Assembly: GCA_903934015.1 (NCBI GenBank)
Contig: CAIZMI010000034.1
Coordinates: 20,378 to 84,377 of the forward strand
DNA: 64,000 nt
Direction of reading: 5' to 3'
Origin: an uncultured bacterium
Lineage (GTDB): Bacteria; Patescibacteriota; Andersenbacteria; UBA10190; CAIZMI01
Shown here: piece after piece, positions 2,558 to 63,974 of the stretch
How positions within the stretch are numbered: the stretch's first letter is position 1
How the letters are laid out: each line of letters starts with the position of its first letter
The notes under the pieces: model-generated
Seen by the model: the letters and a program-made list of their open reading frames with translations, nothing else
The model's database searches: none
Told to the model about the DNA's origin: nothing
Translations under genes and position numbers: made by a program

Positions 2558-3286
2558 ATGACCACACACGCCACCGTCAAAACAGTAAAAAAACTTCACA
2601 ATATTATTATCGACCTTCTTTTCCCGCCCGCTTGTGTGGGCTGTGATAATTTTGGCCCCTGGCTTTGTGACGATTGCCTTAAAAACATCGGCGCCCCGAT
2701 TGAAACCTGTATTTTTTGCAATGAAAAAACATTGCACGGACTTACCTGTGGTGATTGCCGGAAACACAACAGCTTAACAGGTATCATCAGCATTGGTGGC
2801 TACAAAAATCCGGTATTAAGAAACAGTATCCATGCCCTTAAATTTTCAGGCGTGCGCGATATCGCCGAACCATTAGGAGATTTGTTAGCTAAGAGCATCT
2901 TAAAAACTTTAGGGAGCGATTTAAACGGTTTTTCCATTATTCCCATGCCATTACATAAAAAACGGGAAAGAGAACGCGGTTTTAACCAATCGGCATTACT
3001 CGCCGACAGAATCTCTTCCTTGCTTTCCATTCCAGTCGCCAACCTTTTAATCCGCGAAAAAGCCACGACGCCTCAAGCGTCTCTCAATTCAAAAATGTTA
3101 GACTTGCGCCAAGAAAATATTGCTGATGCATTTATTATCAACCCGGAATATACGGCAATAATGCCTAAAAAAATAATTATCTTAGATGACGTAGCAACCA
3201 GTGGCTCAACCCTCAACGAAGCAACAAAATTATTAGGTGAAAAAGGAGTAAAAGAAATCTGGGGCGCGGTGGTTTGCCGAGGATAG
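2558..3286 (+). CDS. comF: ComF family competence protein (double zinc ribbon + PRTase)
   Basis: LLFPPACVGC, CxxC pairs, RERGFNQS, IILDDVATSGSTL. Confidence 0.9.
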   Translation: MTTHATVKTVKKLHNIIIDLLFPPACVGCDNFGPWLCDDCLKNIGAPIETCIFCNEKTLHGLTCGDCRKHNSLTGIISIGGYKNPVLRNSIHALKFSGVRDIAEPLGDLLAKSILKTLGSDLNGFSIIPMPLHKKRERERGFNQSALLADRISSLLSIPVANLLIREKATTPQASLNSKMLDLRQENIADAFIINPEYTAIMPKKIIILDDVATSGSTLNEATKLLGEKGVKEIWGAVVCRG

Positions 3287-3301
3287 ATTAGGAACGTTTC
3301 G

Positions 3302-3446
3302 CCCACTTCCGATGTGGTGCCGAGGCACTTCATCGGAAGTGGTGTAGGTTAGTAGCGTCGTAACGACGATACGCGAACCTAAACCACATCGAAGGAGATG
3401 CTTGACCCTGCGAGGGTTGCCGATAAAGCACCACCTTCGATGTGGC
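3302..3446. repeat. cluster of three hairpins (CCACTTCCGATG/CATCGGAAGTGG; TAGGTT/AACCTA; CCACATCGAAGG/CCTTCGATGTGG)
   Basis: Direct inspection; related hairpin at 5186-5231. Confidence 0.6.
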
Positions 3447-3580
3447 TACTACGCCCAATATCCTCAACCGTTGAACGGATATAAAAACGCAAGTATTGTA
3501 TAACTAGCTTTAACATGGCAATCTTGAAAAGCGGTTCGTAGTTATCCGATTTCCAATCTCTGATATCCGAATTCCGCGCT

Positions 3581-3711
3581 GGAGAGGTGCCAGAGTGGCC
3601 GAATGGGCGTCCCTGGAAAGGACGTAAGTCCGAAAGGGCTTCGCGAGTTCGCCCACGCACCACGCAGGGTGCGGGGCGCCCAGAACCCAACGTGGTTCTG
3701 TGGCGAATCTC
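3581..3711 (+). pseudogene. tRNA-Ser(GGA) duplicate interrupted in the T-loop by a double-hairpin insert; 3' acceptor strand lost
   Basis: 3581-3651 identical to 3752-3822; insert 3652-3705; sequence resumes AATCTC then diverges. Confidence 0.85.
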
Positions 3712-3751
3712 CTACCTATTCTTTAAAACTTTAGAAAAAATAATCAGCTTT

Positions 3752-3838
3752 GGAGAGGTGCCAGAGTGGCCGAATGGGCGTCCCTGGAAAGGACGTAAGT
3801 CCGAAAGGGCTTCGCGAGTTCGAATCTCGCCCTCTCCG
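3752..3838 (+). tRNA. tRNA-Ser(GGA), no encoded CCA
   Basis: GGAGAGG/CCTCTCC acceptor, CGTCC-CTGGAAA-GGACG anticodon arm, long variable arm, GTTCGAATC. Confidence 0.96.
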
Positions 3839-3964
3839 CAAAAATAATGAAACGCCCTTGCGGCGTTTTGTTATTTTGCCTGAGCAACCAACTGCTTGGC
3901 TCACGGCGAGATTTGAACGGCAAGCGATATCTCGCTCGACTGAATACGAAGTATCGCAATCCCT
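3839..3964 (+). ncRNA. structured tRNA trailer with antisense T-arm copy
   Basis: Hairpins, AACTGCTT loop, GGCGAGATTTGAAC (3905-3918) complementary to the tRNA's GTTCGAATCTCGCC with one G-U. Confidence 0.55.
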
Positions 3965-5966: not shown

Positions 5967-6084
5967 GCGCTCGTAGCTTCCCACTCCGCTCAATCTCTGG
6001 ATTGAGCTACGAGGGACAAGTATTGGAATAATAAACCATTGCCTGTCCACCGTAGCTCCGTTCCGCAGAATGGAGCGAAGGTGG
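5967..6084 (+). repeat. tRNA-Lys 5' fragment plus two CGTAGC..GCGAAGG-family palindromes
   Basis: GCGCTCGTAGCT (5967-5978) equals tRNA nt 1-12; hairpins at ~5980-6020 and ~6042-6085. Confidence 0.6.
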
Positions 6085-6157
6085 GCGCTCGTAGCTCAAT
6101 TGGCAGAGCAGGGGCCTCTTAAGCCCAAGGTTGAAGGTTCGATTCCTTCCGAGCGCA
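6085..6157 (+). tRNA. tRNA-Lys(CTT), no encoded CCA
   Basis: GCGCTCG/CGAGCGC acceptor, CTCTTAA loop, GGTTCGATTCC. Confidence 0.95.
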
Positions 6158-6426
6158 CTCTCGTTGATTAGTTTTGCGAAGCAAAACAATCCAAACGTAC
6201 ATAAAATAGCTCCACGTCCTGTGGAGCTATTTTACACAAGAATCAATGAACTCCGAAAGTTTGCGACAAGAGACGCAAAATTTCGGAGCTACCTTTGATT
6301 GCAACACAACTGCTTGTGTTGCGTGAAGGAATCGAACGGCGAGCGATGTTATGCAGAACCGCTCGCCGATGGCCAGATACTTGCGTATCAACGCGAGTTT
6401 CGAGGCCGATTCCTTCCGAGCGCACT
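6158..6426 (+). ncRNA. structured tRNA trailer element ending in a direct repeat of the tRNA 3' end
   Basis: Antisense T-arm 6325-6337; direct repeat CGATTCCTTCCGAGCGCACT 6407-6426; motifs shared with the Arg and Glu loci. Confidence 0.7.
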
Positions 6427-6789: not shown

Positions 6790-6833
6790 AAACAACGCAT
6801 TAAGGTCCGACCCTTGCAAAGGTCGGACCTTAA
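6790..6833. repeat. REP-like palindrome TAAGGTCCGACC-TTGC-AAGGTCGGACCTTA
   Basis: Near-identical inverted copy, including flank, at 50798-50843. Confidence 0.75.
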
Positions 6834-7022
6834 TCACGAAGAACACAACACGACGGCAATATTTGCTGATACAAACAAAATTCCTCCACCCGTGAACGGT
6901 TACTCCCGTATCTTCTGTTACAAACCGAAACCGACGGGGCGACAAAACAAACCCTCGCTATCCCTGTGACTAAGCGTCAAAAAACGATAAATTTTTTTAT
7001 TATGTCTGCCCCCCAACCTCTC

Positions 7023-12580: not shown

Positions 12581-13588
12581 TTATTTGTTCATCTTTCTCA
12601 AGTGCTTTGGATTATGAGAACCAATAAGTTCTATGTATTGTTTTACAGCTGCCCTACTCTCGATAAAAATATCTCGATCCCGCATATTTGCCCAAACACC
12701 GATTTTGCGGAGAGATTCGTGAACTGAATTAAGCAAAGGCGGAGAAGCGGATGTAAAACTAATCTTTTTGTAGCGATAATCTTTGCCTCTTATACGATAT
12801 TGATGCCAATAAACCGAACCATCCGTATCAAAAAGACCTCGAATACAAGGAATTAAATAATTCCGCTTTCTCTTGATCCACATTGGAATATCTATTTTTT
12901 GTCTAATTTTGTTTCCCTTAACCAGACCCAAGTGTTCTATACAAAAGTGAACCATCTCCGTCCGGCTTACGCGATAATCGTTTGCTAAAGCATCTTTACT
13001 AATTATCACGCTCGGTCTAACTCCAAACAATTTCTGAATTAAACTGCATACAAAGATACCGTATTCATGATCATCATACCTGTGTAACGTAACAGTTAGT
13101 TGATAACGGGTTATTCCACCATCACCAAGCATCAATCCGACAAACTCGGCTAATTCCGGTGATTTCATAGGCTTTCTAAACGGCAAACTTTTCCAAAGTA
13201 TTTTGTGTTCTTGATATTTCCCTTTCTCATTCCACCATTTTGTCCACTGCACTCGGCGATAATCCTCATCCATACCAATCCGTCCATATTTTTTAAACAT
13301 TGCTTTACCACCCAAACTGCCAATTTTTTCAAGGCGTTTATTCCATTTTAATAAACTGGCAGAGGTAGGTATTTGTACTCCGCTTTTTTGAGCTAGCGTT
13401 TTAGCGTGGATAAATGACATGTGATACTTCTCTCTCTTCCAATCACAAAGCGTACGCCTATTAATGGCCAACAAACCGGCTAAGAATGGTGTTGATACAT
13501 TTAATTTTGAAGCAACGTTTTCAATAAATTTGCGTTGCTCTTCAGGTTCAAAAATGATCCTGTCTAACTTATCCACTTCATCTATCAT
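12581..13588 (-). CDS. free-standing double-motif LAGLIDADG protein with N-terminal HTH-like region
   Basis: AEFVGLMLGDGG and IRGLFDTDGS motifs; start moved to MIDEV because the upstream part overlaps the tRNA trailer. Confidence 0.8.
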   Translation of the reverse strand: MIDEVDKLDRIIFEPEEQRKFIENVASKLNVSTPFLAGLLAINRRTLCDWKREKYHMSFIHAKTLAQKSGVQIPTSASLLKWNKRLEKIGSLGGKAMFKKYGRIGMDEDYRRVQWTKWWNEKGKYQEHKILWKSLPFRKPMKSPELAEFVGLMLGDGGITRYQLTVTLHRYDDHEYGIFVCSLIQKLFGVRPSVIISKDALANDYRVSRTEMVHFCIEHLGLVKGNKIRQKIDIPMWIKRKRNYLIPCIRGLFDTDGSVYWHQYRIRGKDYRYKKISFTSASPPLLNSVHESLRKIGVWANMRDRDIFIESRAAVKQYIELIGSHNPKHLRKMNK

Positions 13589-13646
13589 GTGGTAATTATA
13601 CAACAAATACGAACATTTTACGAACGTCATTGTTTTTGCACAATCC

Positions 13647-13889
13647 GATTCTTGTGCAAAACAGCATTCGCGTTTAGCGAATGCTGTTTTGTGTACATTT
13701 TTTTGTTTCACTAAGCGAAACAAATCTCGAGTGTCCCCGGCAGGACTTGGCCTCGCCTCAAAAATACTGATGTATTTTTGGGCTGGCCACCGCCTCGTGT
13801 TATCTTCGAATAACACTCCGGCGTTCAAGTCCTGCCGGGGGATTTAGAAAAAAGACAATCGCACCGCGATTGCCATTTTTCTAAATCTG
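13647..13889 (-). ncRNA. structured tRNA-Arg trailer element with antisense and sense T-arm copies
   Basis: Antisense copy 13823-13840, direct repeat 13731-13749, module 13647-13731 near-identical to 63660-63742. Confidence 0.72.
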
Positions 13890-13963
13890 TGTCCCCGGCA
13901 GGACTTGAACCTGCAACCTTCAGCTCCGCAAGCTGACGCTCTGTCCAGTTGAGCTACAGAGAC
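13890..13963 (-). tRNA. tRNA-Arg(GCG), no encoded CCA
   Basis: TCAGC-TTGCGGA-GCTGA anticodon arm; GGTTCAAGTCC. Confidence 0.92.
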
Positions 13964-14021: not shown

Positions 14022-14206
14022 CCGGCAGGACTTGGCCTCGCCTCTCGGAGTGTTGATACACTCCTCGGGCTGGCCACCGCCTCGTATTGCTTGCGAGCAA
14101 TACTCCGGCGCTGAAAAACCATTAAGGGTTTTTCAGCCTGCAACCTTCAGCTCCGCAAGCTGACGCTCTGTCCAGTTGAGCTACAGAGACATAATTAGTC
14201 TCTTTT
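14022..14206 (-). pseudogene. tRNA-Arg(GCG) duplicate (with 16-bp leader) interrupted in the T-loop by ~102-bp hairpin insert
   Basis: 14137-14206 identical to 13910-13979; resumes CAAGTCCTGCCGG at 14034-14022 then diverges. Confidence 0.85.
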
Positions 14207-62771: not shown

Positions 62772-63462
62772 TCAGCCTGTAGATATTCCAAAAATATACC
62801 CACGAATCATGCAAAACAATTTTCTATCGTTAACCCTAATATGAATTGTGCCAAACGGAAGCGCGTACGTCGGTCTTTTATGCTTACTTGCACGACTTAC
62901 CGCAACAGAAACCCAAAACATCTCTACCGGCAATCCGATAACGTTAGCCCAATAAACCTTTGCTTTTCCTGCGTCAACGTTTGGGTGGATAATTATGCCT
63001 GGCTTTATGTTTTCATCTTTTACACATAAAATTTCTCGCAAATATCTCATAAACACCTTCACCATACAAAGATCGGAATTTACGAATGTTACTAATTGAT
63101 ACCCCTTTGAAAGTTGTTTATTTACACCCTCCCCCCCAATACAACGACGTTCCGATCATTAATAAGTCTCTTTTTGAAAGCCTTCCGATTTCCTGTTCCG
63201 CATCCTTATAAATAATATTATTCTCACGAATAATTGCTGCGGTTCGTCTTTTATTAAATTCCGTTAAATTTTTCTCTTTTGACTGACTCGTAAGACGCCT
63301 CAACCTATTCCTTGCTTTAATCCCCAACTCAATATCACGAAACCAAAAACTTAATGTCCCTTTTGATAAAATGTCTAATTGGTTCATTATTTCGCCATAA
63401 CTCTTGCCCTGCTTTCTTAAATCAATTGCCATTTTCTTTTTGACGTTAAGTACCTTTGTCAT
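62772..63462 (-). pseudogene. HTH + degenerate LAGLIDADG-like protein, frameshifted in a G7 run
   Basis: Removing one G at 63131-63137 gives LYWGEGVNKQ..FVNSD..MVKVF, joining the two ORFs. Confidence 0.75.
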
Positions 63463-63587: not shown

Positions 63588-63659
63588 GGCCCTATCGTCT
63601 AACGGCTAGGACACGAGACTTTCATTCTCGTAATCGGGGTTCGATTCCCCGTGGGGCTA
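63588..63659 (+). tRNA. tRNA-Glu(TTC), no CCA on this copy
   Basis: CGAGA-CTTTCAT-TCTCG anticodon arm, GGTTCGATTCC. Confidence 0.94.
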
Positions 63660-63974
63660 CTCGAGATTTGTTTCGCTTAGCGAAACTATATAATGTACAC
63701 AAAACAACCAAACATCCCGTTTGGTTGTTTTGCACAAGAATCGAAGAACTCCGAGACTCTAGGCGCTCGATAGCGCCGAGTCTCGGAGCAGCATTGATTA
63801 ATGCCCTTTACGGGTGTTTTTAAATATCTTCTGTCGAATATGGGGAATCGAACGGTATTTTGAAAACATGAACTGCTTCATGTTTTCAAAAACCGAGGCT
63901 TCGCAGGAGGAGTTGCGCATCGAGCCGAAGCGAGGCGCAGCGACGGAAGCGAAGGATTCCCCGTGGGGCTACCA
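63660..63974 (+). ncRNA. structured tRNA-Glu trailer element ending in a repeat of the tRNA 3' end with CCA
   Basis: Antisense T-arm 63842-63853; GATTCCCCGTGGGGCTACCA at 63955-63974; motifs shared with the Lys and Arg loci. Confidence 0.72.

Follow-up and report, generated by a model that had tools for sequence, protein, structure and literature searches.

The window, the whole 64,000-nucleotide stretch of DNA that was analyzed, carries trailing elements behind its tRNA-Glu(TTC), tRNA-Lys(CTT), tRNA-Arg(GCG), and tRNA-Ser(GGA) genes, the parts of which are collected in Table 1. In all four cases an antisense arm complements the T-arm of the gene it follows, as the sequence-only reading had proposed. 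The complementarity is complete for Glu (12/12), Lys (13/13), and Arg (18/18), and covers 13 of 14 positions for Ser, the exception being a G-T pair. The direct repeats of the tRNA 3′ end that had been described at three of these genes were also confirmed, with 18 bp at a spacing of 312 for Glu, 20 bp at 267 for Lys, and 19 bp at 158 for Arg, and the units contain no open reading frame. The Ser unit in the window is without a distal copy, and its core stops after ~25 nt; a complete Ser unit is present on contig C36 and in a same-genus genome (G001; the genome of the window is G000). Because single Logan contigs span the Lys unit in four of four runs and the Arg and Glu units in three of four, the repeats are real, and assembly artefact is ruled out as their explanation. 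The four runs are lake-water samples from one study, two of which may be the source of the assembly, and one Lys contig has one differing letter.

Table 1. Coordinates of the tRNA genes, trailing units, and adjoining module in the window
Feature	Coordinates	Strand	Basis or remark
tRNA-Glu(TTC), intact, no encoded CCA	63588..63660	+	
3′-abutting module (type A), separate, between tRNA-Glu and the RtT-like unit	63661..63789	+	42 matches in genome
Spacer with putative remnant of terminator-like hairpin	63790..63841	+	Same hairpin precedes the arm in the orthologous unit
Antisense arm of Glu unit	63842..63853	+	Complement of tRNA-Glu positions 53-64, 12/12
Two-hairpin core of Glu unit, type B3	63854..63954	+	Nine-copy covarying alignment and fold
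Distal copy in Glu unit: tRNA-Glu positions 57-73 plus CCA	63955..63974	+	
tRNA-Lys(CTT)	6085..6158	+	
Type A module variant 3′ of tRNA-Lys	6159..6296	+	Sequence; same grammar as other copies
Lys branch hairpin, apex AACTGCTT	6301..6322	+	Predicted fold
Antisense arm of tRNA-Lys	6325..6337	+	13/13
Lys core, type B2	6338..6406	+	57 bits on model R1, outside its training set
Distal copy of tRNA-Lys 3′ end	6407..6426	+	
tRNA-Arg(GCG)	13889..13963	-	
Terminator-like hairpin, tRNA-Arg to arm	13841..13888	-	Sequence
Antisense arm of tRNA-Arg	13823..13840	-	18/18; follows rarer A57 loop
Arg core, type B1	13750..13822	-	84 bits on model R1, outside its training set
Distal copy of tRNA-Arg 3′ end	13731..13749	-	
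Upstream 5′ copy of tRNA-Arg, 70 bp identical	14022..14206	-	T-loop holds second B1 core (67 bits), then 13-nt stub of 3′ arm
tRNA-Ser(GGA)	3752..3839	+	
Truncated Ser unit: hairpin, branch hairpin, arm (3905-3918), first 25 nt of B2 core	3840..3945	+	

Closer inspection modified several features of this picture. The interval 63660..63974, previously taken as one element, does contain a real unit, but it holds two nested elements, the type A module (63661-63789) and the arm, core, and distal copy (63842-63974). The spacer that separates them shows a 77% match to the Glu trailer of G001, and at the tRNA-Glu of that genome the order is reversed, with type A following the distal Glu copy. The core grammar thought to be shared by the Lys, Arg, and Glu trailers persists as a three-helix junction common to core types B1-B3, but the Glu core is of another sequence type than those of Lys and Arg, scoring 21 bits on one core model compared with 57 and 84 bits. 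Similarly, the AACTGCTT apex is found in Ser, Lys, and Glu, but not at one position: in Ser and Lys it belongs to the branch hairpin 5′ of the arm, while in Glu it is located inside the core. The presence of CCA on the distal copy alone does not extend beyond the Glu unit as a rule, as CCA follows neither the tRNA nor the copy in 32 of 59 perfect copies, both in 19, only the distal copy in 4, and only the tRNA in 4.

The same arrangement recurs throughout the genome. ARAGORN called 47 tRNAs, two of which were dropped as spurious, and 17 of the remaining 45 have an arm matching at least seven of eight of their own positions 57-64, compared with 0.1 in random draws (maximum 2, 200 draws). One gapped pattern applied to GTDB genomes gave 103 loci; the pattern fixes arm positions 53-58, and hence the match to the host was scored at positions 59-66. 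Seven chance matches without a tRNA-like arm (L010, L013, L029, L061, L064, L102, and L108) were dropped before all counts. Among the 80 locus titles listed, most are Patescibacteria or uncultured metagenome-assembled genomes. The pattern loci and further loci together provided 116 distinct cores, 92 of which have a tRNA within 400 nt upstream on the same strand, and these hosts represent 17 amino-acid types. In the 92 units, the arm forms Watson-Crick pairs with its own tRNA at 529 of 736 positions, far above shuffled pairings (374 ± 10, maximum 412), showing that the arm matches the adjacent tRNA in the wider family as well. The distal copy is identical to the host tRNA at 1126 of 1288 positions between 59 and 72 (619 when shuffled) and is perfect in 59 of the 92 units. 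The order of parts is the tRNA, a terminator-like hairpin in most units, a branch hairpin in many, an antisense arm that ends in GAAC or GAAG, the two-hairpin core, and a tRNA copy. Complementarity of the arm covers host positions 53-64, the core meets the distal copy at tRNA positions 56-58, and the upstream gene stays whole.

Four core types are present in G000, B1 at Arg, B2 at Lys, B3 at Glu, and B4 at Val, Thr, and Gln; folds were computed for B1-B3, and B4 was recognized by eye. These core types occupy up to 40% of the tRNAs in a genome. The covariation within them is strong: in 60 B1 rows, 87% of 2180 cells are paired and 28 of 37 pairs change on both sides, and in the nine B3 copies that align, changes on both sides are seen in 26 of 42 pairs. 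A single core pair for which the pattern permitted all four combinations is C-G in 55 of the 116 cores, T-A in 59, T-G in 2, and C-A in none. The Glu-type B3 core has a narrower distribution, with matches in 3 of 81 genomes, and all three out-of-sample matches fit their own tRNA. Among 127 matches no case of a core inverted between its arms was found, the orientation always being tRNA-sense. Searches with the B1 pattern in viral contigs, with B1 in plasmids, and with B3 in phages returned no match.

Comparison of relatives reveals rapid turnover. Among the orthologous loci listed, a unit is present in only one of G000 and G001 at Leu(CAA), Leu(CAG), Val(TAC), Arg(TCT), and Tyr, and different core types are found at orthologous Pro(TGG), Met, and Trp, the last without a flank match. 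Within one family, 19 of 61 genomes hold 1-10 copies and 42 have no match; in five of these negative genomes, an arm was sought at 50 tRNAs and found at none (0/50). Cores that are 92-95% identical are located at different amino-acid types, in one such pair within a single genome. Nearest cores share their amino acid in 27 of 94 cases, with 7.9 expected by chance, which suggests that units mostly stay with the same tRNA type and are sometimes refitted to another; the excess also fits vertical descent. Tandem cores, up to three in a row, reside inside the T-loop of upstream tRNA copies (as at window 14022-14206), and units remain intact 4-7 kb from their tRNA after islands displace them. At mismatches between distal copy and tRNA, the arm agrees with the tRNA in 23 cases and with the distal copy in 3; thus, the closing stem is not repaired once the distal copy decays.

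The view that no described family has such a layout did not hold. The RtT repeats of E. coli tyrT/tyrV and of Salmonella tRNA-Pro share it: in K-12, four units with a Tyr-matched arm are located behind tyrT and tyrV, and in Salmonella, the units behind tRNA-Pro are in tandem, with a terminator hairpin and an arm matched to Pro. As in the units described here, RtT repeats are found behind a tRNA, are often in tandem, have an arm that complements the T-arm of their own tRNA, contain a core of ~95 nt, and carry a distal copy, which begins at positions 58-59. The RF00391 consensus closes its core by pairing the arm with the distal copy, as the present units do, and the RtT arm form GA-GAAC is also found in some CPR units. 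There are differences between them, however. The RF00391 core has an interior loop before its junction, whereas the cores here form a direct three-helix junction. In the window, the units have no Rfam match at the gathering cut-off (45 bits for RF00391) and no RtT match even at E 10, and at E 0.1 RF00391 found no match in five of five carrier genomes, while the E. coli control gave a match. The units were not filed as RF00391 because this test failed. The core models of the present units did not match RtT either. With a common layout and models that do not cross-match, the design is known and the sequences are new. According to PMC4986893, RtT of E. coli came to light as an RNA that is released from the tyrT transcript, and in Actinobacillus, Northern signals were obtained for RtT matches close to Asn and Lys tRNAs; a later preprint calls the mode of action of rttR unknown (bioRxiv 2024.07.17.603846). 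In these portions of the literature RtT is described as a regulatory RNA, not as mobile, and our search of publications returned neither a description of the Patescibacteria units nor a report of RtT mobility.

Collectively, these data establish real, widespread, gene-less units of RtT design that are gained, lost, and swapped at tRNA genes. We favor, at a probability of roughly 0.6, the explanation that they are mobile but non-autonomous, with the T-loop as the insertion site and single-stranded DNA as the probable folded form. Gain and loss, core swaps, tandems, near-identical cores at different tRNAs, and the patchy spread all support the tRNA-targeted mini-element that the sequence-only reading had put forward as one of two options. 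The ratio of G-T to A-C is 24:17 in core stems compared with 52:2 in host tRNA stems (Fisher 9e-6), a comparison made on an automatic alignment whose mistakes inflate the A-C count and whose related rows lack independence. The missing G-T bias in core stems points to DNA, an indication weakened by alignment noise. Tandem G-A/A-G pairs occur in 40-41 of 60 rows, where they interchange with Watson-Crick pairs, and only the tRNA-sense strand can form these conserved tandem pairs.

In such an insertion, pairing of the arm to the sense strand of the targeted tRNA gene would set the place of the cut, and the core end would be joined to the target at positions 56-58. The unit would thereby provide the new 3′ third of the gene, with the old third pushed behind the core. 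Refitting to another tRNA would likely proceed by fold-back copying of the tail of the new host; this step is thinly supported, because the match to the acceptor strand is weak (27/79 vs. 16.5 ± 3.2) and minimal units contain no hairpin at all. The enzyme would act in trans, a small GIY-YIG nickase being a first guess made only by analogy with two neighboring tRNA-targeting families. No excision joint was seen in the four runs by means of their Logan contigs, which drop rare forms. A bolder and more tentative proposal, possible rather than probable, is that units of RtT design from E. coli to Patescibacteria are guide-bearing mobile DNA, in which the 12-nt arm reads the target tRNA gene, T-loop insertion is carried out by a trans-acting enzyme, and each new host gene serves as the source from which the arm is rewritten.

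The strong covariation of the cores and the constant tRNA-sense orientation also speak for a second explanation, that the unit is kept for its RNA. Transcription together with the tRNA would be followed by processing that frees a structured RtT-like RNA with a tRNA-like 3′ end, and the unit would spread among tRNA loci by recombination between tRNA tails. The RtT RNAs released or expressed in E. coli and Actinobacillus, as given in PMC4986893, point the same way. However, the core stems are without a G-T bias, four unlike cores replace one another at one locus, and the arm keeps to the tRNA rather than the distal copy (23 vs. 3), leaving the closing stem unrepaired; we regard retention for the RNA as unlikely. 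Less likely still would be a cis switch, the other option of the sequence-only reading, in which pairing of the arm with the real T-arm blocks maturation and pairing with the decoy copy releases it. On folding energy such a switch is possible: in folded full precursors the arm pairs with the real T-arm at a probability of 0.86-0.93, or 0.97-0.99 without the decoy, the tertiary structure of the tRNA being outside the model. The arm also covers positions 53-56, which the decoy lacks, and it follows a GTCC loop variant in two hosts, with one discordant case, Arg(CCT). Yet the switch gained no positive support and leaves the turnover unexplained, as none of the 50 tRNAs in the five negative family genomes has an arm and units vary between same-genus genomes. 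Moreover, the decoy is often decayed (perfect in 59/92) or missing (Ser), units are intact 4-7 kb from their tRNA, and no input signal is apparent.

An origin of the units from integrase islands, for example the large ones with a serine recombinase that occupy the same tRNAs, is very improbable, whether as island ends or as reduced remnants. Cores do lie at the far end of islands in G000 (C43), G344, and L022, and they bound a 5-kb block of restriction genes in G366. But the intact recombinase junction on C43 shows crossover outside the T-loop, in the acceptor strand at the 3′ end of the tRNA. In G108, the stretches examined of the Asn and Trp islands have no core. The serine recombinase island merely displaces the trailer.

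No mobilizing enzyme was found in the scan of upstream open reading frames, which covered 67 of 84 and contained one serine recombinase. Serine recombinases were rejected as movers, given that the island crossover is in the acceptor strand and the unit joint at positions 56-58; the large serine recombinase genes of G000 (C43 21380-25390 (-), C28, and C64) all read into the antisense of a tRNA. On C43 an intact attP-like junction is present in inverted orientation at ~23690, and the distance from its T-loop-like motif to the crossover exceeds that in the tRNA by 5 bp. Tyrosine recombinases, which Williams is said to have described in 2002 as integrating islands in the T-loop of tRNA genes, occur once per genome in five of five carriers and do not track the units, the G000 copy being ~12 kb from the nearest tRNA. 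T-loop integrase islands resemble the present units in that the gene is restored and a 3′ fragment from the T-loop is repeated downstream. In contrast, the units have no integrase gene, measure 80-250 bp, harbor an antisense arm, and have a copy beginning in the middle of the loop (56-58) rather than at its edge.

REP/REPIN and IS200/IS605-type ends are short non-autonomous hairpin elements moved as single-stranded DNA, and IS608 chooses its target by base pairing with the element's own sequence. The present units are likewise short hairpin elements. Their strand is fixed by the tandem G-A pairs, and the missing G-T bias suggests DNA. They differ in their 12-nt host-specific arm and target copy and have no flanking cognate Y1 transposase. 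Y1 transposases are absent in two of five carriers (G108 and G344, which hold 7-8 copies), and the seven Y1 loci viewed have other flanks. IS110 bridge-RNA elements also carry a target-matching sequence; here, in contrast, the match is one contiguous arm, and there is no IS110 gene in four of five carrier genomes, this genome included. Finally, a GIY-YIG gene lies beside a half core behind tmRNA (L185, G000 C18), and it was rejected as well: its clade has a core at 0 of the 42 loci examined of 64 relatives found. Because four of five core-negative genomes also have short GIY-YIG genes, counts of these genes do not discriminate.

These findings link a long-known E. coli repeat that has lacked an explanation to a Patescibacteria family that is widespread and turns over fast, and the question of whether RtT is a regulatory RNA or a mobile element becomes testable in K-12. 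If the arm is a guide, the unit would represent a small, programmable device for integration at a site that is both safe and universal. Were the guide-bearing proposal true, it would amount to a self-reprogramming, DNA-guided insertion system that would explain the E. coli rttR repeats. New here are the recognition of two elements in the Glu interval, the swapping of cores, the G-T comparison, and the exclusion of serine recombinases. In these streamlined genomes, no fewer than four kinds of small selfish element compete for tRNA loci.

The type A module is ~130 nt long, starts exactly at tRNA 3′ ends, is often in tandem, and comes without a target copy; 38 of its 42 matches in the genome are within 700 nt of a tRNA. 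A clade of ~85-aa GIY-YIG proteins (L185:777-1046; L201-L252), with a conserved hairpin leader, is encoded directly behind the 3′ ends of many tRNAs and of tmRNA. This clade is a possible autonomous partner of type A. The type A profile gave no convincing match to the GIY-YIG leader, the likeness being at motif level only. Two sibling families, the upstream T-loop inserts and the 3′-abutting leaders, come with small GIY-YIG genes. At window 3580-3715 (+), in L146, and at G000 C55 51300-51700, upstream 5′ tRNA copies are broken in the T-loop by a short GC-rich insert, and in L146 and C55 a GIY-YIG gene lies between the broken tRNA copy and the intact tRNA.

Other features were noted as well. 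At window 62772-63462 (-), two open reading frames that jointly match one 230-aa HTH-led protein (42% identity) represent a single frameshifted gene, which diverges from tRNA-Glu; in L008, a relative lies between tRNA-Glu and the core. A LAGLIDADG-like open reading frame is located between the Arg unit and tRNA-Ser(GCT) (window 12581-13828 (-)). Immediately 5′ of tRNA-Lys, window 5968-6084 (+) contains sense and antisense copies of the 5′ end of the tRNA together with a hairpin that abuts the gene, a 5′-end counterpart of the trailer design. At L140:8521-13765, a 5-kb block of restriction-type and LexA-like genes, typed by eye, is flanked by two cores that have Ser arms, and no recombinase open reading frame was seen in it. 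In addition, a short palindromic repeat at window 6803-6835 and 3280-3400 has a very high summed depth in metagenome contigs and is also found beside a GIY-YIG gene on C48.
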